From the IMG/VR virus record IMGVR_UViG_3300042892_003674: DNA of 64,000 bases; one strand, given 5' to 3'. The translations under genes and the position numbers were made by a program. Numbering within the stretch: the first letter of the stretch is position 1; the number at the start of each line of letters is the position of its first letter. Shown piece after piece: positions 12,550 through 59,975 of this stretch. The notes under the pieces are model-generated. The model was not told the DNA's origin. It saw only the letters and a list, made by a program, of their open reading frames with translations, and did no database searches. This DNA comes from a virus. Its lineage: Duplodnaviria > Heunggongvirae > Uroviricota > Caudoviricetes.

Positions 12550-13044
12550 ATGAAACACTTAAAAAGATTCAACGAGAGTGTAACACAAGAAGAACTACAA
12601 GACTTCTGTGAATCATCATTAGCTTATCTGATAGATGAAGGGTTTACCATTAGAATCTATGGTCCTGATGATCCACGTAGACCTTTACCTAAAAGACAAT
12701 TCAATATATGGCTACACAAAGATAATGCAAAAGAGTTTTTTAAATGGGATGATGTAAAAGATTATTATATTCCTTTCTTACAACTATTATCTAACAGATA
12801 TGAAATATATCATTTCGATAGTAATCAACCAGAAATTAGATTTAGATACCGTAAAAAGAGTGATTACTCATTTGTCAATATAAATAAAGATTTCAGTTAT
12901 GGTAGAGTTATCAATGATGATGTATTTGATTCAGAAGGTTATTGGAAAGATAGTATATTCTATAAGTGGATACCAGACCCAGATATATTATCTATAGGAG
13001 TTATCATAAAAGAAAGAACTAATCAAGTAAAATTAGATATATAA
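12550..13044 (+). CDS. family A protein
   Basis: MKHLKRFNES..ELQDFCESSLAYLIDEG..WDDVKDYYIPFL. Confidence 0.85.
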   Translation: MKHLKRFNESVTQEELQDFCESSLAYLIDEGFTIRIYGPDDPRRPLPKRQFNIWLHKDNAKEFFKWDDVKDYYIPFLQLLSNRYEIYHFDSNQPEIRFRYRKKSDYSFVNINKDFSYGRVINDDVFDSEGYWKDSIFYKWIPDPDILSIGVIIKERTNQVKLDI

Positions 13045-13045
13045 A

Positions 13046-13630
13046 TTATACGTTTATCTTTATAATTATTTCTACTATATTACTATATGAATCAATAGCA
13101 TCATTTATAAGAAGATTTATTTCAAACTTCTCATTATTAGTCGCGTACCTCCAGTTAGTACCTAAAGCAAATTCAATATCGGATAACGGTTTGAAATCCC
13201 TTTTCAACATAATCAAAAATGGTATAAACCTATCCTTAACCTGATCCCAAGAAAATTCTTCTCGATTTCTCTCTAAAATAAAGATAACATCACCTTGATT
13301 ATATAAATCACTGTTTAGATCCTCATTTATATCAATAAAATATTTAAACCCATCATCCTGTAAGTAAACTAAATGTTGTTCACATAATTCATCAACACCT
13401 TCAATAACATTACCAACCTTTTGAATCAAACCACTCATCACAGATTCAACAGACTCATTCTTATAAGAACCACCTTTTCGTTTTCTCTTACAATATTGCT
13501 TCTGAGAAAATCCCTTTGGATTAGAACAATTTATTGTTTTCTTATACTTAACAGACCAACGTTTCTTACCACCCGCCCTTGGTTTATTATAAGCTTCATT
13601 AAATGAATCGAAATTTAAAATGTTTTCCAT
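13046..13630 (-). CDS. family A domain fused to a basic KRWSxKYK..CxNPKGFSQ module (start revised to 13630)
   Basis: MENILNFDSFNE; ELCEQHLVYLQDDG..WDQVKDRFIPFL. Confidence 0.75.
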   Translation of the reverse strand: MENILNFDSFNEAYNKPRAGGKKRWSVKYKKTINCSNPKGFSQKQYCKRKRKGGSYKNESVESVMSGLIQKVGNVIEGVDELCEQHLVYLQDDGFKYFIDINEDLNSDLYNQGDVIFILERNREEFSWDQVKDRFIPFLIMLKRDFKPLSDIEFALGTNWRYATNNEKFEINLLINDAIDSYSNIVEIIIKINV

Positions 13631-17226: not shown

Positions 17227-17725
17227 ATGAAGTACAAAATTTATTTAAACCAGTATGTAACCGCACAGGTTAGAGTTGAGTTTGAAATCGAATCAGACCT
17301 AGCATTAGAAGACCTACAAGAAGAAATCTATGAAGCAACAGAAGATTGGTCTAGATTGGCTAGATTTAGCCCAGAATTAGAAGAATTCCCAGGAACTTAT
17401 GTCAAAGATTCATATAAGTATGACTTAGACTATCAAGGTGATGATGGTGATGAAATCGATGTTTATGTAGAAGAAGTAGAACAAACAGAAGAAAACTAAT
17501 ATGAGAAAATTTTACTATGTAGTCGACATCGCGGTAGAAGATTACGGTGATGATGTTTTAGAATGTACCGGTAGCAAACTTGTTACCATATACGAAATCA
17601 TTGATAATGAACCAAAACAACTTGAACTATTAGGGCTATCATTAGAAGATGATTCCCAGCAAGAAGCTCAAGATTATTTAGATACAACCTTTGAAGATGA
17701 AGTCTTCGAACTAAGACGTTTGTAA
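17227..17725 (+). other. two very acidic small proteins
   Basis: D/E-rich 90-aa and 74-aa ORFs. Confidence 0.65.
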
Positions 17726-20700
17726 TGAAATATGTTAAGTCTATCAATCCTTTGGGAGTCAATCTAACGTATCAAAAAGTATATGAAGTAATACGTTTCT
17801 TTACATCAGATTGGAGTAAGCTAACATACCACGTAATAATAAATGACTTAGGTGATGAAACTACATATGATGATTTATGGTTTGAAGATGTGACAGCAGA
17901 GGTAAGAGAAAGTAAAATAAATCAGATTTTAGATGAAAGTAGTGTGTGTTAAAGAATGTTCGTATTCATTCAACCATTTAGATTATTATTTCAATATAGG
18001 TGACCAATTTGAATTGTCAAAAATTCAACCTGGTATTACTTTTTTTGATACACAAAAAATATGGAACTCACCTAAAAATAAAATAAGTATCGTAATAAAT
18101 TTCATTGATGGTAAAGATTATACCGTTACTGTATTACAAGAAGATTTTATATCTTTACCAGAATGGAGAAATAAACAATTAAATTTGATACTAGATGAAA
18201 ATAATATGTATAAATAATTCAGAAATAATAAACGGTCCTATTGAATTATTAACCATAAATAAAATCTATGAAGCTATAAAAGTTAGCCAAGACCAATATT
18301 ATATCAAAGACAACTCTGGTGAAGAAAGATGGTATAATTATAATAGATTCAAAGATATGGCTATTGTCAGACAAGAAAAATTAAAACAAATAGGAATATG
18401 ATTAAGTGGATAAAAAGTAAATTCGGAAAAACTGAAAAACAAAAGTTTGATAGTTTTTTAAAAGATTTAGTCAAAGAAAGAAAAGAAGCTCTTAATCCTC
18501 ATCAACGAGGTACTCGTGATACAGGACCAAGATGAATAGTAACATGGACCGATTTAAGATGGATAGATTTAATATAGGAGATAACGTAGTAATAACCAAA
18601 AGGATATGTAACATCAAAGATGTAAAAGGTGTTGTATGTCATATTGGGAAAAGCTTCTATGGGGTTAAACACGGTCGTCCTAACTCTTCTGGTACATGTA
18701 ACATCTTTATAAACCACTCAGACGAGACTATAGAATTAGATATACAACAGCAAAGACATGATAAAATAAATAAGATATTAAATGACTGAGAAAGAAAAAG
18801 ATGATTATATCATAATGATAAATCAATCAGTTGATACTGGTCGTGAAGCACTTTGTATAGATAATAAAGACGTAGAAACTTGGCTAACAAAAGGAAAAAG
18901 ATATAAAGTTTACTCTCACCATATGAACCCTTCTATTCGAGTTATAACCGATCAAGGAACTAACAACTCGTTCTCTAGTGAAAGATTTCAAAGCTTACAA
19001 GATACGAGAGAAGAAAAATTAAAACAATTAGGAATATGAAACTAATATGTATAAATAACTCTTCGTTAGAAGAAGGATATATAGCTCCTATAACACCAGG
19101 AAAGATTTATGAAACTGAACCTAATAATGACATCAATTTAAACTATTTAGTAATGAATGATGCTAGTTTTAAAAGCTGGGAACTAAAGGAAAACTTTATT
19201 ACCTTAAAAGAGTATAGACAACAAAAATTGAAAGAATTGGGTATATGAGATATAAAGATAAAGCCACAATAAAACAAGTAACTAATCATCAGAATAAACC
19301 TGAGACTGAGTACTATGGTCAAAATATGACTAATCGTCAAAGAGAAAGAATGAGAGAACGTTTTCTAAAAGAATTTAGAACAATGATACCAGATAAAATC
19401 TGGTGGGATAGTTTAAATGATAATGATAAAACAGAAGTCGCTCACGAATATAAAAAATTCAAAGATGGTTCAAATAACTTGAAAGAATTAGTTAAACAAT
19501 TTCCTGGTGATATTGTTTATATAAGAGATAAAAAAATTGATGTGTTAGGACTATGAAGAAAATGTTTAAATGTATTGATAAAGGTAGTTATCACCTAACT
19601 CCAGGTAAAAATTATCTTATCTCACTAAATATAGGTAAATCTAGTTTAGGTATGCATCACACTTTATATAATGACATAGGGAAACAACACCTTGTATTTG
19701 AAGATGAACTAAATAACCTATTCATTGATATAGAAAAGATACGAGAAGAAAAATTAAATGAATTAGGTATATGAAAATAATATGTATTAAAAATACTAAA
19801 AGTGTTTCCACCAATGGACATCCAGGTTATGTAGACCAAAAGTATTTTAAAGTAGGTGAAAAATATGATGCTCAAGATGATTATCCAACTGGTAAACAAC
19901 ATTACTTTGTAATACATCATAATGGTTCTAATTATTCTGTATACCGAAGAGACTTCACTACAGTAGAGAACTGGAGAAATAAACAATTAAATGAACTTGG
20001 TATATGAAAGTTAAATGTATAAATACAAGTATGCTTATGGGTGGACCAACTAGACCACTAACCACTGGTAAAATATATGATGTTATCTCAACTAAAATGC
20101 CAGTTGAAATTGAAGGTGATGGATCAATCCTTATCAAAGGTGATGATGATGAAGAACGATGGTATAGTTTAGAAAGATTTGAAGATGTCACCGCAGAAGT
20201 AAGAGAACAAAAATTAAATGATTTAGGAATATGATACTACAAATACTTATCCCATCGATAATAATATCCACTTTAATTTTATTCACGACCTGTGAGATAG
20301 TAAATATAAGTGTGTTCAAACAGTACAATAAAGATAAATCTATATTAGACTTCTATCGTTTTGTTAGATTGTTTAAGGTGGATAGTATCGATTTATCATA
20401 TTCTTTAAGAGGTCCTGTTATTGATAGTTGTTACTACCATATCAAAATACTTGATGAAGATAAAGTTATTTTATTCAAGTGTAGTTTAACAAATAGAATA
20501 AATACCGTATATTTGATAGATTGTAAAGATGATAAACAAAAAGAAGTTAAGTATGAACTACCATTAGGTCGAGCTAGCTGGCTTCTATCATATAGAATGA
20601 ATAAGATCGAAAAATATATGGAACTATCAAAATTAGAACATATCAAAGCAGAAGAGTTAAATAAAGAAGTAAATAAACATCTTACTACCTATAATAGAGA

Positions 20701-22763
20701 AAGTAGATTGAAGAAACTAGGTATATGATACATTGTCACCACTGTTATACTACAACTGTAGATAAAGATTTCATTTGTGATACCTGTGAGGAGTTATACT
20801 GTGAAGAATGTTCTTATACGTTCTCATTACATTACCAATTCCAAGGAAGTAGATGTTATCTGTGTGCAGACCAAGCAAGAAGAAATAAACTAACTAAACA
20901 AATAATTAGACAGAATAAACTTAAATTATTATCTTTGTAATATGAAAGTCAAATGTATAAGAAACTCACCATTAGTATATGGTGGTGGAGTAACCGTAGA
21001 TAAAACCTATCAAGTATTAGATAGTGGTCATATAGGTGGTGAACCAGTATATTACTTAATGAAAGATAATAAACATAAAGACTGGGTATCACAAAATTAC
21101 TTTATTACAATTGAAGAACTAAGACATAATAAATTAAACGAACTGGGAATATAATATGGCCATAATAAATGCAAAAGAAGAGTTTGTTAGACACACTGTA
21201 CGTAAAGTCATAAAGTGTGCTTATATCCAATTCATAGATTATGAAGATGGTGAAAAGTTCTCATTGACAACCGGATTTACACAAGATGAATATAATCAGT
21301 TTCTATCTGATATAGATAAGACTTATAATAACGGTTATGGCGGACAAGAACTAGATGGTATGATTTGGTATGAAGATGGTACTTGGACAACCAGAGGTGA
21401 GTATGATGGTTCAGAGTGGTGGGAATACCACGAAGTTCCTGAGATACCAGATTTTCTGAATCGTATAGATAAAGTAAGAGATAAAAAGTTAAATGATATA
21501 CTAGAATGATTAGTTTAAAAGAAATAGTTTGGGTAAAACAAGCAGGTATATCTGATGATTATATTTACCATGATGGTATACTAAATGGACACCAAGTGAT
21601 TTCTATACATGAAAGTGTTGATTCGCTCTATGAAAAGAATGGTTATACTGTTTATGATCACATAGGTAAAACCGCAGCTTCGGATAGAACGGTTTACAAA
21701 ACATTAGATGATGCCAAAACCGTATCTAAAAAGAAAGTAGAAGATTTTGTATTTGGTTTAATTGATATGAGAGACTATAAAATAAGTACTCTGTTAGAGA
21801 GTTCAACTAAATTGATATGAAAAAAGGTGATTGGGTAGTATGTGTACATCATAGATTTGCTAACTTTACAAAAGGTAAGAAATACCAACTAATAAGCGAT
21901 TCATACGGTTCTACATTAGATATTCTAAATGATAAAGGTGAACGAGGTAGACCCTCATTAAATGGTTATGAAAGTGGTAAAGCAATTACCTACTTTATGA
22001 CTATACAAGATATAAGAGAAAAGAAATTAAATGAGATTCTATATGACAGCAGAAGATATGATAATAGGAAATGATGTTATATGTATTAATAATACCAATG
22101 CAGATGAAGTCATAAATGAAATAACTATCAATAATAAATATAAAATAGTTGAATTTGATAATCACATGAATTGGATAAGAGTATTAAATGATAAAGGTAA
22201 AGTAGAATGGTATACAATAAACAGATTCACTACAATTGATGAGTTAAGACATAATAAATTAAATGAATTAGGTATATGAAACTAAAATGTATTAAAAATT
22301 GGATAGACTATAAAGATGGAGACATTAGAGACGTATCAACTTATCTTACCATAGGTAAAATATATTATCTAGCTAATGAACCTGCCTGTTCTGAATGGGT
22401 TTATAATATCATAGATGATAGAGGCAAACCTCATGATATGGGTAAAGATTTGTTTATAGATGTCTTACCAATCGAAAGAGAAGAAAAATTAAATCAATTA
22501 GGAATATGACAGAACAAGAATTTATCGATTATATGGCACCATATGGTACACACGTACAATTTCAATGGGGTGATGATATTATACAAAAGAAGATACATTT
22601 GACACCAAATAACTCAAATTATAAAAACTTTCCACACATATCTAAAGGTAGAAAATATCATATGGAGTTTGAAATAAACGGCAAAAGATCATCAATAAAA
22701 GAATGTTCTGATTTGATAACGATATATAAAAGAGAAGAAAAATTAGAAAAATTGGGTATATGA
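17725..22763 (+). other. tandem array of about 19 family B small proteins
   Basis: Mostly MKxxCI..LTxGKxY..DDxG..F..R[DE]xKLxxLGI; many joined by GG(T/A)ATATGA stop/start overlaps. Confidence 0.85.
21787..21809 (-). mobile_element. TA-flanked double-hairpin micro-insertion (21-bp variant)
   Basis: TAGTTGAACTCTCTAACAGAGTA on -. Removal restores the tag RDYKISKLI. Confidence 0.55.
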
Positions 22764-25354: not shown

Positions 25355-26249
25355 ATGAATAAAACTTATCTTAGACTTAAAAGAGATATATCAATACTAG
25401 TAGCTGATGGGAACTGGTCACTAAACACTGGTGATATGATTGTATTACAAAAAATTGGAACCAGAAGTGAGATTAAACGCCATGAATATAAACCAAGTGA
25501 ATATATTCATAGTGATAGTTACCTACTAACAGGATTTGAATATAGAACTATTAAAGATATTAAAAGTGCCGAATATCATACAGTTTGGAATGAATGTAAC
25601 TCAGTTGATACTTTAATAACAATATCTACAGGTAAACCTTTATATCATAGTAGAACTTGCACATATTCAGAAATTATATCTAATAATAAATTAAATATTA
25701 CCATAGTAGATAATATTAGACTTGAAGATGTATTTGATGATGTATCAATACAATATAATAGACATAATAAAATAAAAGAATTATTTATATGATAGACATA
25801 GTAATACCCGTAAAAGACTTCTATAGAAATATACCCGGTCAAGGCAAAGTAAAGGAACTAACAAAAGGTAAACAATATGAATGTAGGATAGAAACATTAG
25901 GTAATAAAAGCTTCTTTCTTAGAACCGACTTAGGTGATATGAAAATGTATAGTAAGAAAAATATGTTTATCACAAAGTCAATGTCAAGAGATAATAAGTT
26001 AAGAGAATTGGGAATATGAGACTAATATGTATTGATCATATTACCGATGTTCTTAATTTTGGTAATGGTGAACCCGAACTAACGTATGGTAAAGAATATG
26101 AAGTCACTAGATGGTTTGACAAACATGAAGATGGTAGACAGTTTATTGGAATAATAAATGATTCTGGTAAAATAAATGAGTACTTGATAACAAGATTCGT
26201 AACCAAAGAAAAATGGAGAGATAAACAAATAAATAAGATTATACTATAA
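25355..26249 (+). other. three family B tagged ORFs
   Basis: RHNKIKELFI, RDNKLRELGI, WRDKQINKIIL. Confidence 0.75.
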
Positions 26250-29264: not shown

Positions 29265-29891
29265 TTATGTCATAAAGTATTCAGACTTAATATAAATAGA
29301 TATACCTGCAATCTGTTTATCATCTTCTATTTCATCATTTAAGATTTGATCAACTTTAATCTTTTCATTAGTTGATCCAGATTCAACTCCCGTATCATAA
29401 CTAACAAATGATATACCTCTTTGATTATGACCCTTTGGATTATCTTGTATCTTAAAATCTTTTACTAAGTAATAAAAGAATGGTATTAAATGATTCTTTA
29501 CAGAAGACCAACTAAAGTAATCTCTTTGACCACTTTGATTAAATCCATCTAACCCAATATAAACAAAGAAAGCATCTGGTACATTACGAACAATCCTTAC
29601 AATAAAACCATCATCTTTTAAGTAAGCTAGATTATTATCACATATTTCTTGTATAGCTTCTTTCTGCTGTTCGTTATTATCAAACCTTGGTTTAGTATTT
29701 CTTTCTTCAATCATTTTCTTTAAAGCCAAGTAATATGGATTACTTACTTTATCTGATAACTCAATGGCTTTATTGATATATTCTAACGCTCTATCATTAT
29801 TCAAATGATTATTGAAATAATGAAGAGCTGAACTATAATAGTCAGTATCACTACCAGTAGAACTTTCATTGAATGGTTTTAAGTATTTCAT
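29265..29891 (-). CDS. family A protein with TPR-like insert (start revised to 29891)
   Basis: MKYLKPFNES; ALEYINKAIEL; ICDNNLAYLKDDG..WSSVKNHLIPFF. Confidence 0.8.
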   Translation of the reverse strand: MKYLKPFNESSTGSDTDYYSSALHYFNNHLNNDRALEYINKAIELSDKVSNPYYLALKKMIEERNTKPRFDNNEQQKEAIQEICDNNLAYLKDDGFIVRIVRNVPDAFFVYIGLDGFNQSGQRDYFSWSSVKNHLIPFFYYLVKDFKIQDNPKGHNQRGISFVSYDTGVESGSTNEKIKVDQILNDEIEDDKQIAGISIYIKSEYFMT

Positions 29892-43063: not shown

Positions 43064-44113
43064 ATGAGAGTAAAATTACTTTTCCTATTATTTCCCTTCT
43101 TTTGTCTAGCACAAATCCCTACATACTATACATCTATTGATTTCTCACAGACTGGTAACAATCTAAAAAACCAGCTTACCACTTTAATAACAAATACACA
43201 CACTACCTTTTTACCATATACAGCTACAGGAACTACTGATACTTGGGATGCTTTATATCAAACTGATTTAAACCCAACAAATACTAACAATGTTCTTTTA
43301 ATTTACGGTTGGGATGATAATGATAATGATTTCACAAATGATTACTCTCGTGATAAAACTTTATCATGTCATACGTCTTCATGTTCTGGTCTATGGCAAA
43401 GAGAGCATGTTTTCCCTCGTTCATTAGGTACTCCAAATTTAGGTTTTGAATTCGCTGGTTCAGATGCTCACAATTTAAGATCTATCGATGCTGACAGGAA
43501 TGGTGCAAGAAGCAACCGCATGTTTGAAGACAGTTCAAGCTCTGTGATGTCTTTTATTACGACATTAGGTAATTGGTATCCTGGTGACGAATGGCGTGGT
43601 GATGTCGCACGTATGATAATGTATATGTATGTTCGCTATCCTACTCAATGTGCCGCAACAAGTGTCGGTGCAGGAAGTACTACCTTCTCTGTTGATATGC
43701 CAAATGTTTTTTTAAATTGGAATGTAGCAGACCCTGTTTCTCAATACGAACTAAATAGAAATAATATACTTCAAAATATTCAAGGCAATAGAAATCCCTT
43801 TATTGACAATCCCTATCTAGCAACTGTTATTTGGAATGGTCCAAATGCTCAAAATCCTTGGGGTTCATTATCATCAAGCAATCAAAGTATTGCTAACATA
43901 TCAATATATCCTACTATAACAAAAAACATAGTACACATAACAAATCCTAACAACCAAAATTATCAATACTCTATTTTTAATACATTAGGTCAATTAATCA
44001 AGACCAATACCACTACTGATATTATAGATATTTCAAACAATTCAAAAGGAATATACTTTATCAATTTACAATTAGAAAATCAATCAAAAAATTTTAAAGT
44101 TATTCTAAATTAA
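43064..44113 (+). CDS. secreted endonuclease I-family nuclease with T9SS type A sorting domain
   Basis: Signal peptide; WQREHVFPRS, DAHNLR, RGDVARM..YM, NRNPFIDNP; C-terminal IYP..IFNTLGQLI..GIYFI..KVI. Confidence 0.9.
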   Translation: MRVKLLFLLFPFFCLAQIPTYYTSIDFSQTGNNLKNQLTTLITNTHTTFLPYTATGTTDTWDALYQTDLNPTNTNNVLLIYGWDDNDNDFTNDYSRDKTLSCHTSSCSGLWQREHVFPRSLGTPNLGFEFAGSDAHNLRSIDADRNGARSNRMFEDSSSSVMSFITTLGNWYPGDEWRGDVARMIMYMYVRYPTQCAATSVGAGSTTFSVDMPNVFLNWNVADPVSQYELNRNNILQNIQGNRNPFIDNPYLATVIWNGPNAQNPWGSLSSSNQSIANISIYPTITKNIVHITNPNNQNYQYSIFNTLGQLIKTNTTTDIIDISNNSKGIYFINLQLENQSKNFKVILN

Positions 44114-44338: not shown

Positions 44339-46163
44339 TTAATGAAAATGTTTATCAGAAAATAACCGATCGATGATTTTCATCCTCCTTATTGTATTAA
44401 ATACTGAAAGTGGCTCTAACAAACCACTACCAGTATTATAAGTTATATTCTTTAATCCCAACTTCCTCTCAATCGATTCCTTTATCCTCAATTTTAAATC
44501 CATAATCAAACCAATACCCCTATTGTTGTCATTAAACCACCATTAAACGTGTTCCTTGAAACATCTATAGCTCTTATAACATAAGTTACACCTTCATATA
44601 AAATCGTGTCTCCCACGTCAACTTTCGGTAACTCCTTCTCCCATACCTCAGAACATAAACCAGACTTAATGAAATCTATAATCAATACAACTCCACGACC
44701 AGTTAGGTTAAACTTATCCGTAACAACCAAATTATCCCAATTCTTCATAATACTTTCCTCCTTCTATATACAATACGATCCTCATCAAAAATACCAAAAA
44801 TCCTCCTTATCGCAGCCTTCCTCATTAAAACACGTAAGAACTCATACTCATAATCATCTATCATAACTATCATCTCAAATAGGTGATACTATTTTGATTA
44901 AAATGTAACTTAATATATTTCCACTCTAAATACTCCTTTGAATGTGTCTTGTCATAAATAACTAAAGAATCAATAGGTAAATGAAATAACCTCTCAACCT
45001 TTCTAACTCGCTGCAATCTTTTCATCATATTACCCTCTTTCTTTAAATTCATGACCCTAACTTAAAATCTTCTCTAACTTTATCTGCCTAATCTTTTGCG
45101 GTAAATCCTCAATAATTTCTGATCCACTTACCGAAATACCATCATATAAACATGATATATGAACCTGATGATATTTCTCATTATAAACCGAAGAGTTCCA
45201 AGTCATTGATGATAACTTCTCAATAATTCTTATCACCTTTATACTATGATAATCATTTAAACCAGGCTTCTCCTTCATAAGTATATCAAATACATCCTGT
45301 GCCAAAAACTCAGCAATCTTAGTATAATCAAAATCCTGACCACTAGTAGTAAAACTAAATGACTTATCGTCGTTCTCTATAAGAACATCAACCAATTCTC
45401 CAAAACTATTTTCAAATATCATATCCATGAGATCTTATTTGTTAAATTATAATACCAATCACCATTAGTCATCCCATCAGGTTTAAATAACCTGAAAATC
45501 TTTCCCATACGATTCATTACAACCCTATGCTGTCTAGGTGTTCTATTAGGCTTCGTACTCTGTGTATGCAGAGAGTGTTTCACACTACTACTACTCATAT
45601 CAATCCTTTCAAAATATGAATTATCTTCATCTTTCTTACAACACGTCTTCTCTCAATCCAACCAGGTAGATGAGAGCTCATATACTCTTCATACCACTTA
45701 TTATCCATTCAATATCCTTTTAATCTTTTTCATCCGTGAGTTCTTTCTTATCCACTTTAAATTCGTCGGTCTGTGAACTCTCTTAGACCATTCGGTATAA
45801 CCCATACCATAAGTGACTATCGGAAGCGCCATGACAAAATCCTTTTAATCTTATACTTTCTTGTTAGAATAACAGGTAACCTAGCTTCTCGTAACTTATG
45901 CTTTTTCCACCACCTCAATTGAGTAAAATCATTATTCATATAAAAATCCTTTTAATCTTATTCTTTCTTATTAGTCTAGTCGGTAGTGTAACGTGAAGTT
46001 TAGCACTAGGGTTCAGAATACCTAAACCAACATTTACTGCACTGTAGAGAGTAAAAATCTTTTTAATCTTTCTCTTTCTAGCAATCTTACTACTATAGGT
46101 TCCTTTCACAGCATAGTACGAACCCGGTGAAATACCTAAACTACCTTTTTTTATCGGTTCCAT
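44339..46163 (-). other. operon of about 10 small ORFs, most basic with an R-x-x-K-I-x-x-I/L-like motif
   Basis: RKRKIKKIF, RKNKIKRIF, RKYKIKRIL, RMKKIKRIL, RMGKIFRLF, RQIKLEKIL, RVRKVERLF, RRMKIIDRLF. Confidence 0.65.
45556..45587 (-). mobile_element. TA-flanked double-hairpin micro-insertion (30 bp)
   Basis: TA-GTGT-GAA-ACAC-T-CTCTG-CATACA-CAGAG-TA, in frame in ORF 45419..45598. Confidence 0.65.
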
Positions 46164-48000: not shown

Positions 48001-50432
48001 TATGATGATTTAATATATAAGTATATGATGAGGTATTTAAAAAGTTTTATGGAGTCTGATTTTTATGTTAGGTTGAAAGGTGATGATTTGCAGGATGAAT
48101 TGGATGATGTTTGTGAGCAATTTTTGGCACCATTGGCGGATGATGGGTTTACGTATGAGGTTAGACCTGCTTGGAATGGTGAGTTTGATATAAGGTTATC
48201 TTTTACTGATGGTGGTCGTACGAATAAGTTATATGATTATTCTTTGGTGATGGATAGGTTTATCCCGTTGGTTCGTATGTTATCTAGGAGGTATGATTTA
48301 CATGATACTGTTTATTTTTATAGTACAGAGGTTTATGATATGGATAGGAAATCTTTTACGGTTGGGCAGATATTGAATGATGAGGCGCCGGATTTTTTGG
48401 TTACTACGGTTAAGTTGACGGTTAAGTCGAGGAAAGGTTAGGATTGTGGTGGGACCAATCAGGGGTTCGGGGAGCCGTTGCCTTCGGCAAGTAGTTTGAG
48501 GGTCGTCGGAGTCGTAAACGTGCTGACGCACGTGGGGTTTTAAAATAAATTGTAGTGATGAGATACATAAAGAAGTATAACGAAAGTAATTCAGAAGGTT
48601 TAACTGAGGAAGTAATAAAGGATTTCTGTGAGATGAATCTAGCTTATCTAATGGATGATGGTTTAAAGGTTTTGGTTTCACCAGATTATTTTGATTTAAA
48701 GGTTATAGATTATAAGGTGACGTTATCGTTTAGATTATTTGTTAATAAGAGGTGGGGTCAGATAAAGGATCAGGTTATACCATTTTTAACACATTTAAAG
48801 AATGAGTATGATTTAGTAGCAGATTTAGGTAATATGGGGGTTTCTGATTATTCTCAAAAGGTATTTTTAAAGAATAATATAAGGATTGAGATGATTGGTT
48901 CGGTAACTACATATCCTGATTGGTTTAATATAGATGATGTTATATCGGAGAAGATTGTTCCGGCTGGTCGTCTCCAAGACGATTATAAGATTTATACAAT
49001 TCAGTTTAAAATTAAAGGTAAGAAATGAAATACATAAAGACTAGTGAGACATTGAAATCAGAGGCAGATGTTGCTTATCAGAAAAGGATGGAGTTACAGG
49101 AGTTTGCTAATGATTGTTTAGTTTATCTTATAGATGATGAATGGTCGGTATCGGTGTGGGGATTTACTACATCGTTTAAGATTGTTTTGTTATCACCTAG
49201 GTCGGTTAAGAGAAATAGAGTTCATCATGATGATGTTACTTGGTTATCGGTAAAGAATCATGTTATTCCATTTGTTCAGATGTTATCTAATAGGTATCAT
49301 TTGGGTTATGAGGCAAGTTCATCGATTATTAGGATAGAGGCGACTTATTCGGATGATATACATATTAAGGATATAAAACAGTTAGAGGATTTATCGGATG
49401 ATATGTTATTTTATAGTTTTTCGATTGTAGTAAAAAAATAGGTTAGGTATGAAACATTTGAGAAAGTTTAATGAGAGTATAGATGAGAATGAATTAAGGG
49501 ATTTCTGTGAGATCAATTTAGCTTATTTGTTAGATGATGGTTTTGAGATAATGATTAGTGGTAATAATTTCAGTGGAGATTCTTTTAAAAGTATAAAAAT
49601 AACTAATCCAAGGTCTTTAGATGATCGTCAGGATGGTACGGTAAATTATTTTAAATGGAATGACATTAAAGATCATTTTATACCATTTTTTACACGTTTA
49701 TTAAATCAGTATTCACTTTATGGTAACTTTATAGTGGCGGATGGTATATTGTTTCACTATATTGCACCTATGTATGCTCATGATAGAAGTACTAATTGGT
49801 ATAAATTCTCTGGGTTAAGGACTACAAAGTTGTATAAACCATCTTTAGATAATGTATTAAATGATGAGGTATATGATGATGTAAGTACAATACATAATGG
49901 TAATCATTGTATGAATTACTTATATAGTATTGAATTATTAGTAAAAGAAAAGTAGTAAGGTATGAAACATTTAAGAAGGTATAATGAGAGTTTAGATAAA
50001 GATGAGTTAGAGGATTTCGTAGAGAGTTGTTTAGCTTATTTATTGGATGAGGGTTTTAATGTTTTTATTCCTAGATCATCTGGTGATGATTCTGTTGCGA
50101 TTTGGTTAGCTATTTCTAATCAATATTCTACTAATTCAACTTCATTCACTTGGGATCAGATAAAGGATCATTACATACCGTTATTGAAGTTATTATCTAA
50201 TAGGTATGATATAATTGGATTTGGTGAGCCGAGTAGAGATGGTCGTTCTATTGAGATGGATTCGACTGCTCAGATAAGATTTAGATTACAACCGGAATAT
50301 AGTAGTGATGCGTTTAGGGATTTTCCGTTATACAAGGTGATGAATGATACTTTATTTGGTTCTTATTCGTATGAGCCAAGTTTATATTCGGTGGGTATTA
50401 TGATTAAAGAAAAAAGATAGGTATGAAACATT

Positions 50433-50464
50433 TAGTACGAAGTACTCTTTACGGAGGTAAAGTA
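50433..50464 (+). mobile_element. TA-flanked double-hairpin micro-insertion (30 bp)
   Basis: TA-GTAC-GAA-GTAC-T-CTTTAC-GGAG-GTAAAG-TA splits MKHL|RRFNE. Confidence 0.75.
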
Positions 50465-50951
50465 AGAAGATTCAATGAAGGTTTGTCTTCTAATGAATTT
50501 GATGAGTTAAAAGATTTTAGTGAAAGTTGTTTAGCTTATTTATTGGATGAGGGTTTTGAGCTTGAGTTGGTGGATAGATATGGTCGTGATTCAAATGACC
50601 CTTCGTATGAGATTGACTCGGATTACTTTTGGATTGATCTTTATGGTCCGTTTATTACTCAGCCTGATATGTATGGTGCAGTTCCTAATGATAGAAGTTA
50701 TAGTTGGAATCAGATAAAAGATTATTATATTCCATTTCTTCAGTTATTAAAGGCGAGGTATGTATTAGTAGATGATGAAAGAAGTTATAAAGGAGATGTG
50801 GTTTACTTTAAGATACTAGAAGGCGCAGATGTTGATACGGCATTTAAAGAGTTTAAACTTGACGAGGTTATAGGAGATAAGATTACATTAGATAGTATCT
50901 TTTCAGTATCAATAAAAGTAAGTAGTAAGATATGAAACATTTGAGAAAGTT

Positions 50952-50983
50952 TAGTACGAAGTACTCTCTGCTAGAACAGAGTA
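50952..50983 (+). mobile_element. TA-flanked double-hairpin micro-insertion (30 bp)
   Basis: TA-GTAC-GAA-GTAC-T-CTCTG-CTAGAA-CAGAG-TA splits MKHLRKF|NES. Confidence 0.75.
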
Positions 50984-51461
50984 ATGAGAGTTATACTCAG
51001 CAAGATTTAGATGAGTTAAAAGAGTTTTGTGATGATCACTTATCATATTTGATTGATGAGGATTATAAGGTTTCTGTTCAAGATTTTGAGACAAATGCTG
51101 GTAGTGTATTACAGGTTGTTGTTAGACCACCGAAGGTTATGAGAAAGAATAATTGGGCAACAAGATTAAAAACGAATTTAATTGAGGAAGAGTTGGGAAC
51201 ACCTTTTTCACATTTCAAGGATAGGTTGATACCATTTGTTTATATGTTATTGAAGGATTATCGTTTGATAACCAATGAAGAGATGGATAGAATGGAATTA
51301 GGTCATGATGAGGGTGGTATGGGTTTTGCGATGCCTAATCCTAATAGTAACATATTAGATACGAAAATGGTACGTGTTAGTTCTTTAGAACATTTAGAAC
51401 AGGTTGAAGATAATCTAATGGTTTCAACATTTTATATAAGAATAAAAAAGAAAGATTAGTT

Positions 51462-53162
51462 ATGAGAAAGTTTTTATTAACTATATTATTAATGTTAGCT
51501 ACAATTGCCGTTACAGCTCAAAGTGTTACCGCTCCTCCAGCAACATCATATAATCAAAATACTTCAAATCAAAGTGCTACGGGATTTTCGGTATCAGGAT
51601 TTGTACCGACATCTACTTTATTAGTTACTGTTGGGTTAGTTAATCCTCCGTCAGGTACTACTTTAAGATTTTCGACGACATCAGGAGTAACTGCGAGCAC
51701 AGGATATGCAATGACATCTAATTTTACTAGAATTAGTTTTACAGGCCTTCAAGCAAATGTAAATACAGTTCTAGCATCACTTTTAGTAAACACAGGTTCA
51801 ACACCTGGGAATTTATATATAGCAGTTACTGCAACAGAAAATCCGGCAGGTTATTTTTATTTACCGACAAATGGTCACTTTTATCGACCAATCGCCGCGG
51901 GAGCAACTTATACCAATGCAAGAGCTGCTGCATTGAATACGACATTTAGAGGTCAGCAGGGATATTTAGTAACTATCACTTCTGCTGATGAAGATTTGTT
52001 TATCTTTAACAACGTTCCTCAATCTCAAATATGGTTTGCATTAACAGATGAAGGAGTAGAAGGACAGTGGAGAATTGATGCTGGTCCAGAAGCCGGTACA
52101 TTAATCAAGACATCTAATGGTCAGACAGCAGGTAACATTGCAGGTCAGTATAATAATTGGGCAGGTGGAGAACCTAATAACTCTGGTAATGAAGATTATG
52201 CAGTAACAAAGTGGAATGGTTCTCAATGGAATGACTTACCTAACAGTTTTTCATGTCCTTATGTAATTGAATATGGTACATGGTCTGATCCTGCAAATCA
52301 AACTTTTACAAATTTCTATACAGGATTCGTAACTCATCAAATAGCGTGTAGTCCTGCAACCTCACCAACAACTCCTAACGGAGTTAATGGCTCTAGATCA
52401 TTAGCAGGAACAGTTTCTTTATCAGCAACGACAGCAGCGGGTACGACTGTAGATTGGTATGCTAATGCAACAGGTGGTAATGTACTTTCTGGAGGTTCTG
52501 GAACTTTATCATTTACGACTCCTAGTATTTCAGAAACTAAAACATATTACGCTCAAGCTAGGAATTCAACGACAGGATGTGTTAGTTCATCAAGAACTGC
52601 TGTGGTGGCTACTGTAAATTACCCAACACCATTTACATACTCAGGCACTATTAATAGTTCTTTAGGAGCTGGAGTACCAAATATTGCAGTTAAGGTTTAC
52701 TATAAAACAAAGGCAGGATCTACATATACATTGTTACAAACATATACGACAGATAATTTTGGTATATTTTCAATTTCAACTTCGCTAGATATTTCAAGTT
52801 ATGACTTTCAAATAGTTATTGATAGCATACCTATTACATCTCCTTCTGTATCCGATGCATTAATATTTAATCAAAAGGTATTATTTCAAACGTTTGATGC
52901 AAAGGATTATTATAGAATGAATACCAATGGTAATTCTAATTTAACAGTCGCTGATATATTTTTAATCTATAGAAGAATTAATGGTACTTCATTTTCAGTA
53001 CCAGTATATAGATTATTTACACAAACCGAATGGAGTATTATTAATGCATCGACTGCAAATTTAACAGCCTCATATACAGGCACACAAACTATAACTTTAA
53101 CTAACCCAACAGCAGGTGGTAATTCAACATTCTACCTAATTAAAACAGGATTCGCTAACTAA
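51462..53162 (+). CDS. secreted C-type lectin plus Ig-like domain protein
   Basis: Signal peptide; GYLVTITSADE..WFALTD..EGQWR..YNNWAGGEPNN..EDY..WNDL; DWYANATGG..FTTPSIS.TKTYYAQ; EF-hand-like NTNGNSNLTVAD. Confidence 0.85.
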   Translation: MRKFLLTILLMLATIAVTAQSVTAPPATSYNQNTSNQSATGFSVSGFVPTSTLLVTVGLVNPPSGTTLRFSTTSGVTASTGYAMTSNFTRISFTGLQANVNTVLASLLVNTGSTPGNLYIAVTATENPAGYFYLPTNGHFYRPIAAGATYTNARAAALNTTFRGQQGYLVTITSADEDLFIFNNVPQSQIWFALTDEGVEGQWRIDAGPEAGTLIKTSNGQTAGNIAGQYNNWAGGEPNNSGNEDYAVTKWNGSQWNDLPNSFSCPYVIEYGTWSDPANQTFTNFYTGFVTHQIACSPATSPTTPNGVNGSRSLAGTVSLSATTAAGTTVDWYANATGGNVLSGGSGTLSFTTPSISETKTYYAQARNSTTGCVSSSRTAVVATVNYPTPFTYSGTINSSLGAGVPNIAVKVYYKTKAGSTYTLLQTYTTDNFGIFSISTSLDISSYDFQIVIDSIPITSPSVSDALIFNQKVLFQTFDAKDYYRMNTNGNSNLTVADIFLIYRRINGTSFSVPVYRLFTQTEWSIINASTANLTASYTGTQTITLTNPTAGGNSTFYLIKTGFAN

Positions 53163-53246: not shown

Positions 53247-56200
53247 ATGAAACATTTAAGAAAGTTCAATGAGGGGTTAAAAGAAGAGTTACAGGATTTC
53301 TGTGAGACTTACCTAGCTTATTTGATTGATGAGGGGTTTAAAGTAAGGATTTCAAAGTTTGAAGGAGATGACTTTCATCAGATAATGTTGGGTTATGCAA
53401 CAGACGGTTCGGGATATGGTAATAATAATCGTTTATGGTCAGAGATGAAGGATCAGGTTTTGCCGTTCTTACATTTTTTATTTAAGGATTACGAATTGTA
53501 TTGGGATAACGGTGTAGAAGCACCGATGGGTATTATTTATCATTTAATGGGTGGTTCTGGTACATCTGGTTCTCTTAGACAAAGTAGTCTAACATTGAAG
53601 CAGATAAATGATTTACCTGATGATACTGAGATAGCTACTTTATTTATTAGGGTTATTAAAAAGGAAGAAAAGGTTGAAAAAGCTTGGTTTAGAAAATTTT
53701 AAATAATATATACATTATGAAGTATTTAAGAAGTATTTTTGAAGAGGTCAATCAAAATGAGTATGAAGAGTTAAAAGATTTCTGTGAGATGTATTTAGCT
53801 TACTTATTAGATGATGGTGATTGGCGAATAGACATTTCTATGAGAACTCAGGTTTATCCACATACTGGTTTTTATGACGTTATGATTTGGAGAAGATATG
53901 AGACGAATGCAGATGGATCACATAGTTATCCTAATTGTACTTGGGATGATGTATCTGATTATTTTATACCATTTTTCAAAGTTTTGATAGATAATTATGA
54001 GTTAGTGCCTAGTGTTTCTCGTAGTATGAAAACGGGAGAGCTTGTTGATAATTTAGTGGAGTTTTCAGGGGCAAATGTACCAAAGGAAAAGATATTAGGT
54101 AATTTGATACCGGGTAATCAACCAGCTAGAAAAATAAGTTTTAAAGTAAAACGTAAGATATGAGGTATTTAAAGAAGATTTTCGAGAACGATTTATATAA
54201 ACAGGTTGATTCGGATGAGTTAAAAGATTTCTGTGAGACTTACTTAGCTTATTTATTGGACGATACTAGTTTTAAGATAGAGGTTATTGATACAGAAAAG
54301 TGGGATTCATATACTATCTGGTTGGGTAAGACTTTAGTAGATCGTCGTATTCAGACTTTTAGTTGGGATGACATTAAAGATTATTATATTCCATTTGTTA
54401 CGATTTTATCAAGAGAATATGATTTGAATGATATAGATTTAGATCAGAGAAGTTCGAGTATTATTATCAATTTTATGTCTGGTAATCAATTATTTGTTAC
54501 TGCGTCTGGTATTGAAGATTGGGATGGTAGACTTACAAAAAGACCAGATTTTTATAACGGTAATGGTATCAAAGAGATTGGTATTGTAGTAAAAAATACT
54601 ATAAAGATATGAGGTATTTAAAAACATTTGAGTCTATTGATTTAGAGAAAGATTTAAGAGATTTTTGTGAGACTTATCTAGCTTATTTGTTAGATGGTGA
54701 TTTTGAATTATCTGTTATTTGGCAGGGTCATAATCCTTTTCTGGTCCCATATAACCGTTATAATATAAATCTAGTTAAGTTAAATGATTATGGAGCTACT
54801 GGATTTACTTGGAATGAGGTTAAAGATTACTATATTCCTTTTTTACATATGTTGAATAAAGATTATGAGATAATGGATGAAGGTGAAGCAAGTAGAAACG
54901 CGGGGCAGTGGGATGTTCCTTGTATTTGTTTATATAATGGTAGTCAAAACTTTTGTGTTTCGGTTAAGGATATTTTATCTGGTGAGCCTTTACCTGGTAG
55001 ATATGATGATAGACCTTTATTAGAGATTACACTTCAGGTTGCGTTCAAAAATAAATTGGTAGAATGAGATATTTAAAAAGATTTAATGAGTCAGTTGATT
55101 TAAAATCACAACTACGTGATTTTAGTGAGTCTTATCTAGTTTATTTGTTAGATGATGGTTATACGGTAAATATTACACAAGCAAGTGATCATTCAGGTGG
55201 TGGTGGTTTGCCACCAAATGCATTTTTGATAAAATTGAGTAATGACATTGATTTTACTTGGTTAGATGTTAAAGAGTCATATATTCCATTTTTACATATG
55301 TTAAATAGAGACTACAATATAGTAGATCAGTCTATAATGATTTATGATTATAATGATGATACTGAGTTTGGTATTGAAACAATTTTATCTGGTAATCCTT
55401 TACCATTTGATAATAAAAGTTTAATAGAGATTTTAGTTTGGGTCACTTTTGATAAACCTATTAAAGAGTCTGTTGAATTGAAGACAGATGATGTAGAACA
55501 TTATTTGGTTGAGTTATTGGATTCTGGATTTGATGATGTCAGGGTTACTAAAAGTGCTGATAGATATAAGGATGTTGAACCAATGACTGCAATTTCTATG
55601 GAGAGAAAGCTTACTACTGATGAGTGGCAATCTATTTTAAGAACTGGTATTATATATGAGAATGTGATAATTGGTGTGAGATCTGAACCGATGAGAGTAT
55701 TTACTTCTAGTCAATTTAAGAAGCCAGTTCCTTTATCTATTTTTAAATCTGATATATTGAATCAGGTTGAGTTTTTCGCACAGGATGCTGCAGATAAGAT
55801 TTTATTGAGTTTATCTGATAAGTTTGTTAGTAAGAAGATTGTGATGTCTTTTAAGGCAGGTGCAGGTCAGGTTCAACGATATAATTTTGGTGACATTTCG
55901 ATTAGATTACAGATTATTTTAACAGAAAAGGAAGATACAAAATGAAATATTTAAAGAGGATTTTTGAGAATTTAGATAAGGATGAGTTACAAGATTTCTG
56001 TGAGATGAACTTAGCTTATTTATTGGATAATGAAGATTTTAGGATAGACATTGAATACTTTGATGACTTGATAGGTCAGTATTTGGTTGTTATTAAATTG
56101 GTTAAAATGGTTGAGCTTAGTGCTGGTGGAAGAATGACGACGATGTATCAGTGGCAAGAGGTTAAAGATTATATTGTACCGTTTATTGTACAATTGAATA

Positions 56201-59200
56201 AGAGTTATAGTTTGAATACAACTTGGAATGATAATAAAGGTTCGATTACTATTCGTCAGGAACAAGAGTGGAGAAACTTTTCTTATGAGAAGTTTATGAG
56301 GGTTGTTGATAATTGGTATGAAGATGATGATGAGATAAGATATATTGAAATAATATTAGATAATAAATGAAACACTTAAAAAAATACAATGAAGCGGTTG
56401 GTGGTGTGAATGGAGTTAATGATTTCTGTGAGGGTTACTTAGCAAATATTTTAGATGATGATTCTTATCAGTTTAATGTAACAGAGCAAATGTCTGGCCA
56501 TAGGGTATCACCATCGTATTATTTTAGTTTATACAAAGTAGGTAATGGTGCATATGATATAATTCAGTGGGATGAGATTAAGGATCAGATTATACCATTT
56601 TTACATATGTTGATAAGAGAGTATAGTATTGAACCTATGAGACTTATAGATCAATCGAAGCTAACCTATCAAACAAAAAACGTTTATATAGATGATAATC
56701 CTAGAAACAGAACGATTCAGTTTAACAGGTATTTACCGGATACTTATAGTTCTGATCTTTATTATATGGATGTGAGGAATGTTATAAAGGACGAGGATGT
56801 TCCTGAAAAATTCTATCGAATACAATTACAATTTTACTAATATAATATATAGTTCTATGAAATACTTAAAACCATTTAACGAAGCCGTAACACAAGACGA
56901 CATTGAATTATGTTGTGTTGATTTATTTGATGATGGATTTGAATTAAATGGTTATAATAAGACTGGTAAAACAATAATTCAGTTAGTGAAGAATATTACT
57001 TCTTCATTACCAGACGATCAATCTAATATAGTTGTAGTTGATGAACATTCAAAGAATTATAGACAAGGTACAATAACTATATCAGGTAGAAATTTTGATC
57101 ACGTTATTGCAAAAGAAAGATCTAGTGATCTACCATTTACTGAGAATGAGAATAAACTTATAAGTCAAGTTAGTGATGCTGCAAATCTATTGAGACATTA
57201 TAGTAGTACTAATGGTGGGACTGATCGTGTTGTTATTACTATAACAAGTAGAGGAATACAGAATCCTATGAACTTTGAATATGAAAGATACTTAACACAA
57301 ATAAATATATTATTCTATATATGAGATACTTAAAAGGGTTTAATGAAGCTATTGAACAAGACAACATTGATTTATGTTGTGTTGATTTATATGATGATGG
57401 ATTTCAGTTACTAGGTTATAACAAGACTGGTAATACCTTGATTTCATTACAGAAGAAAATAGTTAGTCAATTAGATCAGTGGGATGGTCACACAGGAACA
57501 GATACTAGAGCAGGAGTTATGTGGGATGAACATTTAAGTAAGTATCAACCGGGAACTATTACTATTACTGGTGATAATTTTGATAAGGTTGAAACTAGTT
57601 TTAGACAAACTTGTGGTTGGGATAGAACTAGACCATTACCATTTACTGATGATGAGAATAAACTTATAAATCAAGTTACTGATGCGGCTAGTATATTGAC
57701 ACATTATAGTGATACTGAGGTAAAAAGAAAAAGAGTTGAAATACAAATTTCTAGTAGAGGTTTACAAAATCCTATGAACTTTGAATATGATAAATACTTA
57801 ACAATATTAAAGGTAACATTCTTCTTATGAGATACTTAAAGAGATTTAATGAGGCAATTGAACCAGATGAGATAAAAGACTTCTGTGAGCAGTATCTAGC
57901 TTATTTGTTAGATGATGGTTATGCTTTAGCTTTTAGAGAATCTGGTAGAATAACTCAAGTAGACTTTGTTAAACCAAAGGAAAATCCTTTACACGGTAGA
58001 TGGAGTCCTGGTTTTGGTGGACCGGTTGATTGGATGGATTGGGATCATATAAAAGATAGTTTTATTCCTTTTTTAAAGATGTTAGATAAGGAGTATGATG
58101 TTAAGGATAATCTTATAACTTTTCAATGTCCTAGCGCGATACAAATTCAAATATCTTTTCAGGATGTTATTGATGATAAAGTAAAAGATATACTTCATGA
58201 CAAACTTACATTAGATGCTAGAGATAGAATTAGTTCTGTTAGAATAAATGTTATCGATCATAGTGTTAAGGATTATGCTTGGCAGGTTAAAGAAGCTAAA
58301 GAAGATTGGAGAAGAAACTTCAGTGATGATGAGTTACAAGAAGTTTGTGATACATTTTTACCTTATCTTTATGATGAGGGTTTTGTTGTACACACCACGG
58401 TGCCTACTTATTTTATGTTTAAGAAAAACATTATTACACTTTGGAAAGAACAAGAAAAAGGTGATGGTCGAGGATTAGAGACTCTTCCATTTTATTGGCA
58501 TGAGATAAAAGATAGATTTCTACCACTTTTTGATTATTTGAATAAGAATTATCCGTTGGGTAAGGTTAGATTGGTTCATTATTATAATTCTTGGGAAAGA
58601 AAAGAGAACAAGAAAGAAGTGGTTTTTAAATCGGATAATGATAAAGAATCTTGGAGTGGACTTCCATTTAGTAAGTTTGAGGAGATTATGTCGAGAGATG
58701 CCGCTTATAGAAGACCAATGAAGATTGGTGAGATAATAATAGAAGTACAAAATTTAGATGAGTTATGAGATATATAAAGTTATTTGAGGGTTTTAAAGAT
58801 GATTTACTTGGATTTACTCAGGACCGCTTAGCTTATCTTATGGATGATGGATTTGATCTTACAACAAATGACACACAGAATGGTTACTGGCGTGAATATA
58901 ATGTTGATTGTGGAAAAATTTCAATAGTTAAACGTTCAGGTTTCACTTGGGAGGAAATTACTGATAGATTCTCACCGTATATTTATATGTTGAATAAAGA
59001 ATATAGTATTTTAGAAATAGTATTTCATCAGAGTGGTGGAAGACAACAACAATATGATACTAGAAAAGATATAGAAGAACTTGTAAGTGGTGAATCGGAT
59101 CAGTATCTTACCAATAAGTTGTATTGGATGATAACAATAATAGTAAACAAATGAGATATATAAAATTATTTGAAGTATTTGATAGATGGTCAAGAGATCA

Positions 59201-59975
59201 GAAATCTGAACTACAAGATTATTGTGAGACTAATCTAGCTTATCTTATGGATGATGGTTTTAAAATAAGAGTTGGTCAAAACATTGATAAAACAGTTCGT
59301 AATGTTACAATTCAAATAACTAAAAAAGATTCCGTGGATACTAGTGATATAGATAGAGAAGATTTCTTTTGGGAAGATGTTAAGGATCAAATTATACCAT
59401 TTGTTTTGAGATTAGAAAATAAGTATGATATTGAAAAGATTAGAATTTTAGGTGAGGATAATTATCGTTATATGAGAGATAATTTTGAATTTGAATTGGA
59501 TACACTACCTATTTACAAAGTATCTTATATAGATATATTTTTATCAGGTGAGAAAGATGTACTTAATGAGAGTATGTCACACAAAGAAGAGATTGAAGAC
59601 TTTTGTGATACATATTTATCTTATCTTACTGATGAAGGATTCTATATTGAGTATGAAGAGCTTTATGGTGGTCATTGCACCAATGTAACAATTAGACATT
59701 CAAAGAGAGAGGATAGTAGGTACTCTCATGATTTTAGTTGGGATGAGGTTAAAGATCGTTTCATACCATTCTTACAAATGTTATCAAAGGAATATAAACT
59801 ATTTAACTTCCATCATGAAGATTTTAATTGTAAAAGAAATCAAGTGGTTTGTATGAGAAGGTTAGATGATCTTTTATCTAGTGATTATTATAGTTATGAT
59901 GATGTTATTAAAGATACTATAAATGCAGATTTTCTCTTCTACATAAAGTTAAAGGTTGGTGGTAAACTTACCTAA
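53247..59975 (+). other. tandem array of 12 family A genes (53247, 53717, 54160, 54609, 55064, 55942, 56367, 56857, 57321, 57827, 58765, 59151); three are two-domain fusions
   Basis: Leader plus shared domain; 56857/57321 form a divergent pair (ELCCVDLFDDG / DLCCVDLYDDG). Confidence 0.9.

Follow-up and report, generated by a model that had tools for sequence, protein, structure and literature searches.

A nine-residue N-terminal leader on an expanded protein family and on unrelated proteins of a giant uncultured phage: a candidate capsid-targeting peptide

The leader and Family A in the window

The DNA analyzed here, IMG/VR record IMGVR_UViG_3300042892_003674, is a stretch of 64,000 nucleotides from an uncultured tailed phage, and the whole stretch is referred to as the window. 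Its sequence matches the first 64 kb of the 156-kb metagenomic contig JBFDNU010006644.1, it has a G+C content of 30%, and it is densely packed with short open reading frames (ORFs), mainly in the same direction. About a fifth of the genes (22%) begin with the same short peptide, the leader, which has the nine-residue consensus M-[KR]-[HY]-[LI]-[KR]-x-[FYI]-N-E. This report deals with the leader and with Family A, a family of leader-bearing paralogs.

An all-against-all BLASTP comparison of the window ORFs yielded one cluster with 28 members. A hidden Markov model (HMM) of the family without the leader columns still detected 25 ORFs with 27 domain copies at E <= 1e-24, the genes at 57827 and 59151 holding two copies each. 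A preliminary description of this DNA had reported about 25 genes with a domain of about 130 amino acids in arrays at 29.2-32.5, 48.0-51.5 and 53.2-60.0 kb, and all of this was recovered, together with a further pair of genes at 12.5-13.6 kb. The two divergent members mentioned there are the genes at 56857 and 57321, which have only the leader, helix 1 and the DDGF-strand in common with Family A (hhalign 94.5%, 37 columns). The quoted motifs ELxDFCExxLAYLxDxG and WxxIKDxxIPFL are the two conserved helices of the domain. Taken together, the results with the HMM, with hhalign and with the unrelated ORFs treated below show that the earlier counts, coordinates and motifs were right, and a few start codons were corrected (48028, 48558, 56857, 59151 and 13630(-)). 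The genes are as follows (E-values for the leaderless HMM; "box" denotes the promoter-like motif described below):

12550-13044, + strand: Family A gene, 164 amino acids, leader MKHLKRFNE (E 3e-39)
13046-13630, - strand: Family A gene, 194 amino acids, variant leader MENILNFDSFNE (E 8e-30)
29265-29891, - strand: Family A gene, 208 amino acids, with the leader, a helical insert of about 65 amino acids, and the domain at residues 75-204 (E 3e-37)
29905-30315, - strand: Family A gene, 136 amino acids (E 8e-32)
30556-31074, 31071-31556 and 31556-32047, + strand: three tandem Family A genes (E 1e-28 to 1e-34)
32074-32505, - strand: Family A gene, 143 amino acids, the member that was modelled; box at 32512-32520(-)
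48028-51459, + strand: array of seven Family A genes (48028, 48558, 49025, 49449, 49962, 50423, 50932; E 1e-27 to 1e-37)
48011-48019: box heading this array
53247-56840, + strand: array of seven Family A genes (53247, 53717, 54160, 54609, 55064, 55942, 56367; E 3e-24 to 4e-36)
53704-53712: box within this array
56857-57324 and 57321-57830, + strand: the two divergent genes; box at 56843-56851
57827-58768 (two domains), 58765-59154 and 59151-59975 (two domains), + strand: Family A genes

Several members deviate from the common architecture. The protein encoded at 13046-13630(-) has an insert of about 45 amino acids, rich in Lys and Arg, between its leader and the domain, and the C-terminal half of the protein encoded at 55064 differs from those of the other members. 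In the internal domains of the two-domain fusions the leader is reduced to decayed remnants (RRNFSD, VLNES).

The leader is a conserved module at the extreme N-terminus

For comparison, a related genome of 385 kb (G004) was used, which encodes about 36 leader proteins among 463 crude genes (8%). The leader motif is found at residue 2 in 22 proteins of the window and 20 proteins of G004, while shuffling led to an expectation of 0.01, and therefore a chance origin is excluded. Two apparently internal copies in the window follow an in-frame Met, which is the likelier start. The leader is strictly N-terminal and directly follows the initiator Met. Position 4 is L or I in 31 of 32 carriers and position 7 is F, Y or I in 29 of them; Glu is present at position 8-9 in 27 of the 32, with a hydrophobic residue, usually Phe, two positions before.

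An AlphaFold2 model of the protein encoded at 32074, based on the paralog alignment, reached a predicted local distance difference test score (pLDDT) of 86.8 and a predicted template modelling score (pTM) of 0.81. The pLDDT is below 50 only at residues 1-8, and the folded domain of Family A begins at residue 13. The leader is 9-12 amino acids long, and a linker of variable sequence follows it. Across the paralogs, conservation is confined to the leader (entropy 1.04) and the two helices (1.55), and the values range from 2.0 to 3.1 elsewhere. The ratio of nonsynonymous to synonymous substitutions (dN/dS) was determined with the Nei-Gojobori method for six orthologues of 32074, excluding indel columns, and amounts to 0.04 for the leader (dS 1.02), 0.11 for H2+b3, 0.35 for H1, 0.46 for the sheet, and 0.53 for the loops. 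The usage of synonymous codons within the leader is ordinary (134 versus 138.1 expected, of 207). As the synonymous sites are saturated and codon usage is ordinary, the peptide, and neither the DNA nor the RNA, is the target of selection. The leader is a separate module, disordered in the model and yet the most conserved segment of the family.

Two further observations concern individual leaders. An in-frame element of 30 bp is inserted in the leaders of the genes at 50423 and 50932, which it splits into MKHL / RRFNE and MKHLRKF / NES, respectively. Its layout is TA-GTAC-GAA-GTAC-TCT, a variable hairpin, and then AGTA, and the copies are located at:

50433-50464: copy in the leader of 50423
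50952-50983: copy in the leader of 50932
45556-45587, - strand: third copy

If the leader were a removed propeptide, such inserts would leave the mature protein unaffected. In G004, the protein encoded at 142092-142766(-) (L146) has the leader MKKLKTYETFINEE, followed by a signal-peptide-like segment, RRGIAAAGLMGALATSPAMS.

Unrelated proteins carry the same leader

Six small leader-bearing ORFs of the window are unrelated to the Family A domain (E >= 0.8):

30347-30559, + strand: 70 amino acids, strict leader MRYLKHYES (E 0.8 to the domain)
40519-40773, + strand: carrier of the shortened form MIIRKFNEE
40796-40984, + strand: carrier of the strict form MKHIKKFNE
41034-41282, + strand: carrier of the shortened form MIHIKKFND
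40496-40504 and 40764-40772: boxes of the three carriers at 40519-41282
11294-11587, - strand: basic DUF5872-type ORF, leader variant MEHILLFEQF (Pfam PF19197, E 1.4e-6)
11587-11796, - strand: basic DUF5872-type ORF, leader variant MKNLLIFEDF (Pfam PF19197, E 1.5e-3)
11799-11807, - strand: box of the preceding pair

The ORF at 30347 heads an operon (30347-32047) and is preceded by a TAATATATA box at 30333-30341. These are the same ORFs that had been named as unrelated carriers in the preliminary description, with the variants at 11294 and 11796, and none of them is domain-like. The three leader-variant proteins encoded at 13046-13630(-) and 11294-11796(-) have strongly basic segments rich in Lys and Arg, unlike the acidic Family A domains, and are candidate DNA-associated internal proteins.

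Outside of the window, a degenerate DNA pattern for the leader matched more than 118 loci in IMG/VR. After trimming of the leader, 125 leader ORFs among the matches listed fell into at least 71 unrelated clusters, and Family A makes up about a tenth of these carriers. Seven Pfam types were recognized among their domains, i.e., ART-PolyVal (ART, ADP-ribosyltransferase), GIY-YIG, NUDIX, GNAT, Methyltransf_24, ankyrin, and leucine-rich repeat (LRR). Injected phage effectors of these classes are known. The pattern is nearly absent from cellular DNA: it was present in 18 stretches of 596 Gb of bacterial and archaeal genomes, 13 of which are from one low-GC metagenome-assembled genome (MAG). Dense arrays of LRR-like paralogs were observed on contigs of this MAG (JALOAD01, 'Ca. 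Muiribacterium halophilum' MAG bin 137; L175-L192), which have a G+C content of 24-28%. At least 22 copies of this LRR-like family are present, 4-5 per 8 kb, each headed by MKYLKxFNE, and the contigs look like mis-binned huge-phage DNA.

A portable signal had been proposed before, and the number of unrelated clusters, the exclusively N-terminal location, the position outside of the fold, and the strongest purifying selection within the gene bear this out. As judged from these sequence comparisons, the leader is a real, portable, virus-specific and selected peptide.

Fold and variation of the Family A domain

The model of the domain comprises two helices (residues 13-32 and 77-90) and a six-stranded sheet. 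It is confident, and no known relative emerged above background: Foldseek searches against PDB and BFVD gave no match at E < 1e-3, the best Z score in a wide search with VIA-align was 6.2 and thus inside the background, and no usable match was obtained for eight family members in Pfam and PHROGs. A likeness to tail-terminator, PilO and S6-type alpha/beta folds (Z 5-6) is at background level and was not used. An exhaustive profile search retrieved 1,493 Family A representatives at 50% identity, with E <= 1e-10 for 991. Many of the 1,493 are fusions of two or three domains. The named matches in the ESM Atlas and in a search of 5.8 billion proteins are all viral or metagenomic hypothetical proteins, and no description of either the leader or Family A was found in the literature. 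Family A appears to be a new alpha+beta domain family of about 130 amino acids, with about 1,500 clusters at 50% identity and no annotation in the databases searched.

In 26 orthologues of 32074, which are 56-99% identical, the loops 61-76 and 95-103 are hot spots of substitutions and of indels, the latter up to about 20 residues long. Positive selection in these loops was looked for via the average dN/dS of the six orthologues, which is highest in the loops but not above 1, and a sign of an arms race is missing. The loops are relaxed and indel-rich rather than demonstrably under positive selection. The mature domains are acidic, with pI values of 4.3-5.7 and a net charge of -3 to -14 in 20 of 22 members. 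Family A had been proposed to be a diversified anti-defence or host-binding repertoire. The conserved scaffold with two indel-rich hypervariable loops, on which this proposal was built, is real, but the loop dN/dS, the lack of any fold or sequence link to an anti-defence protein in the searches, and the acidic character, unlike that of the T4 internal proteins, speak against it. The conserved two-helix frame combined with a freely varying sheet and loops hints at a collection of binding modules, and the LRR family, a second family of the binder type found elsewhere, repeats the pattern of tag plus expansion. From the pattern of variation and the parallel LRR expansion, a binder repertoire is plausible, while an anti-defence role of Family A is weakly supported.

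Promoter classes of the leader genes

Strict definitions of two promoter-like classes were set in G004 and then applied to the window. The strict TAATATATA box has sharp positional peaks 13 and 30 nt before the ATG in G004, where it precedes the genes for the portal, the protease, tail fibres and a head-module peptidase as well as giant ORFs. The second class, AAACTT-N15-17-GATATAAT, precedes the genes for DNA polymerase, two helicases, SbcC, the small subunit of ribonucleotide reductase, both subunits of topoisomerase II, and a Lon-like protease. The strict TAATATATA box is found at 14 leader genes of G004, the AAACTT-N15-17-GATATAAT type at three at most. In the window, leader genes follow 9 of the 15 strict TAATATATA boxes, a strict or variant box stands at the head of every Family A transcription unit, and none of the leader genes has the replication-type promoter. 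This predicted promoter class fits a synthesis of the leader proteins during head assembly. The location of the box at -13 suggests that the mRNAs are leaderless or nearly leaderless. A host-type TAnnTTTG motif was not concentrated at any position and was dismissed as noise.

Relatives of the phage and their head module

Two genes of the window are informative about the host:

43064-44113: endonuclease I with a type IX secretion system (T9SS) sorting domain
51462-53162: secreted-type protein of 566 amino acids, flanked by the two largest Family A arrays and containing C-type lectin and CHU_C Ig domains

The T9SS domain of the former and the CHU_C Ig domain of the latter indicate a Bacteroidota host. 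A protein identical to that encoded at 32074 is also present on a contig of 328.7 kb, and among the leader-bearing IMG/VR contigs there are several genomes of 280-680 kb that are 90-100% complete. A tblastn search of GenBank phages with one Family A member and a neighbouring 421-amino-acid protein gave no match. The major capsid protein (MCP) of G004 is 51-72% identical to the MCPs of genomes of 634-735 kb (LR745206, LR756501-4), which belong to the Mahaphage clade with predicted Bacteroidetes hosts (Al-Shayeb et al. 2020, PMC7162821). LR745206 contains 24 strict leader starts, versus none in the reversed control. On this genomic evidence, the window is from a giant uncultured Bacteroidota phage related to Mahaphage-type huge phages. 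Besides the Mahaphages, the cultured Bacteroidota jumbo phages PTm1, pT24, MA9V and PAU are among the closest known counterparts. The closest cultured phage is PTm1, with an MCP identity of 26% and the same module of portal, protease-scaffold and MCP.

The head genes of G004 encode a portal (phrog_213), a head maturation protease, and an MCP of the gp23 type. The protease is formed by the first 250 residues of an ORF of 712 amino acids (phrog_207, E 3.5e-31; weak match to Pfam S77), to which a scaffold-like tail is fused. Genuine Family A members (E 1e-30) co-occur with the same MCP and protease-scaffold in the relatives G017 and G018. For G004, G017 and G018, the head module was recognized by matches to phrog_207 and to PF07068 (E 1e-28), with identities of 75-83% between them. 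Family A itself is patchily distributed: it is absent from G001 and G005, has weak partial matches in G002-G004, and is present in 3-5 copies in G006-G008, G017 and G018. In the MCPs of the relatives, the last Glu before a Glu-free conserved core belongs to an invariant I-N-E, which is followed by NAYVN and is comparable with the F-N-E ending of the leader. Small leader-type genes lie inside the head module of the relatives. A conserved gene of 130-138 amino acids directly after the MCP gene starts with the leader variant MRLKKYKQFNES / MKHISNFKLYLES; it was found at three loci:

L161, 3296-3688: post-MCP gene with leader variant
L162, 1033-1425, - strand: post-MCP gene with leader variant
L132, 6492-6908, - strand: post-MCP gene with leader variant

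Its product contains a GVPGSHVVI motif, which presumably resembles NFACT-R/DUF814-type domains.

A possible capsid-targeting function of the leader

The closest known peptide of this kind is the capsid targeting sequence (CTS) of phage T4, which is found on the internal proteins IPI-III and on Alt (Mullaney and Black 1996, reviewed in PMC9026906, PMC3012670 and PMC8442874). The T4 CTS has the sequence MKTYQEFIAE and undergoes a single cut, and its cargo is retained in the head (PMC8442874). Residues 4 and 7 are the main determinants of targeting and residues 8 and 10 those of processing, and the protease gp21 cuts after L/I-X-E (PMC9026906). IPI, IPII and IPIII are small, highly basic head proteins (PMC8442874), and the T-even internal proteins are diverse anti-restriction proteins with the CTS alone in common (PMC3012670). 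Like the CTS, the leader is a short peptide at the extreme N-terminus of otherwise unrelated proteins, and starts with Met-Lys. In both, positions 4 and 7 are hydrophobic or aromatic, and the second residue upstream of the Glu is hydrophobic. The clade also has head genes of the gp20/gp21/gp23 type, as seen in the relatives, and its cargo classes include an ADP-ribosyltransferase, as does T4 with Alt. There are differences, too. Only M1, K2, F7 and the Glu coincide, the Glu of the leader is at position 8-9 instead of 10, the leader is present on 8-22% of the genes in comparison to about five proteins in T4, and in the relatives the protease and the scaffold form one fusion protein.

The best available explanation, for which we consider the chances to be about even, is that the leader serves as a capsid-targeting propeptide like the T4 CTS. 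This would account for its layout and Glu ending, for the head machinery, and for the promoter class and types of cargo. According to this model, the leader would attach new proteins to the scaffolding core of the prohead via its hydrophobic residues at positions 4 and 7, and the gp21-type prohead protease would cleave behind the Glu at position 8-9. The mature protein would be kept inside the head and pass into the next host cell together with the DNA. Among the cargo of this phage, Family A would be the family with the greatest expansion, with the two helices as a conserved frame, and with a sheet and two loops that vary freely and may form modules that bind host factors. All steps from docking and cleavage to packaging and injection, and any target as well, are inferred.

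Several points weigh against a capsid-targeting function. The tie of the window to a T4-type head module runs through the relatives G004, G017 and G018, and only 6 of 149 proteins are common to G004 and the window. The putative P3 residue of the leader is mostly Phe, unlike in the L/I-X-E motif of gp21, and Family A is acidic, unlike the basic internal proteins of T4. When the MCP cut site was sought by homology to T4 gp23, the alignment covered the C-terminal two thirds only, and the N-terminal profile gave no match. In PTm1 no leader match was found, and no cultured carrier of the tag is known. To our knowledge, the number of carriers (22% of the window genes, 8% of the G004 genes) exceeds any known CTS set. 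The timing of leader gene expression is deduced from motifs only, and the match to the CTS is a resemblance, as a peptide of ten residues cannot establish homology.

The main alternative is that the leader might be an address or docking tag for another machine of the phage, e.g., a degron or handle for a Lon-like or MoxR/vWA-type ATPase-protease, or a tag read by a hub protein in the infected cell. Portability, restriction to the N-terminus and selection at the peptide level would fit any system that reads peptides, G004 does encode a Lon-like ATP-dependent protease (phrog_4871), and the carriers outnumber any known packaged set. We regard this as rather unlikely. It leaves unexplained the CTS layout with positions 4, 7 and the terminal Glu, the Phi-x-E ending (Phi, hydrophobic residue) that the MCP junction has in common with the leader, the presence of leader-type genes within the head module, and the virion-type promoter class; the Lon-like protease itself is behind a replication-type promoter.

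A further possibility is that the tag does load the head, but that the Family A proteins are structural components of its interior (core, inner-body or DNA-organising proteins) and not injected effectors. Precedents are the giant phages phiKZ, 201phi2-1 and SPN3US, which have about 50 head proteins, paralogous internal families, and a gp21-like cleavage after Glu (PMC5694885, PMC9026906; for the head families of phiKZ and SPN3US also PMC7411985). They resemble the leader phages in genome size, in the paralogous protein families, and in the gp21-like protease. However, their propeptides are mostly longer than 100 residues, have S/A-X-E sites, and have no common short tag (PMC5694885, PMC9026906), in contrast to the 9-12 amino acids of the leader; in addition, their hosts are Proteobacteria, and the sequence of their MCP is unlike that of gp23. 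A structural role would agree with an average dN/dS below 1 in all segments. Yet 27 fast-diverging, indel-rich copies with a patchy distribution among related phages are unlike a structural component, and acidic proteins are poor DNA condensers. We consider this explanation to be improbable.

The assumption that the shared N-terminus has no function of its own, and was simply inherited within one family or results from RNA-level constraints on the start of translation, could draw on the fact that most carriers in the window are paralogs and that many leader genes have the box 4-5 nt from the ATG, with possibly leaderless mRNAs sensitive to the first codons, but it is hardly tenable, because it is already contradicted by the unrelated clusters and Pfam-defined domains that carry the leader, by the free synonymous sites with the expected codon usage, by the many genes with a box at -13 that have other N-termini, and by the decay of internal leader copies.

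Packaged counter-defence enzymes, i.e., effectors that are delivered together with the DNA (ART, methyltransferase, nuclease), are known from the Dar system of phage P1 and from the 'polyvalent proteins' (ART-PolyVal, PF18760). One leader carrier has an ART-PolyVal domain as well. In contrast to the P1 Dar and polyvalent proteins, the putative leader effectors are separate small proteins with a tag on each, instead of domains of one giant fusion or proteins loaded via DarA/Hdf.

It is tempting to extend the capsid-targeting model to the whole clade, which would then load and inject a pre-made proteome, consisting of dozens of different leader-tagged proteins (8-22% of the genes), among them enzymes (ART, nuclease, methyltransferase, GNAT, NUDIX) and strongly expanded, lineage-specific families of hypervariable binders (Family A in this phage, an LRR family elsewhere). 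This extension is tentative, and we think it somewhat more likely to fail than to hold. If it were true, much of the extra coding capacity of huge phages would be an injected first-strike arsenal that is addressed by a single nine-residue tag. One recognizable tag would then sort a large share of the hundreds of unannotated small genes of huge phages as virion cargo. It would also give a sequence rule for the prediction of injected proteins in metagenomes, and, being compact, it could be used to load foreign proteins into large capsids.

A second paralog family

BLASTP comparison also grouped 25 small ORFs of the window (60-95 amino acids, between 2995 and 42153) into a second paralog family, for which no Pfam match was found. 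The proteins typically start with MK[IVL]xCI, contain GKxYE, and are without the N-terminal leader. Example positions are:

17725-20234: members of the second paralog family
21817-22509: members of the second paralog family
25789-26249: members of the second paralog family
38616-39882: members of the second paralog family

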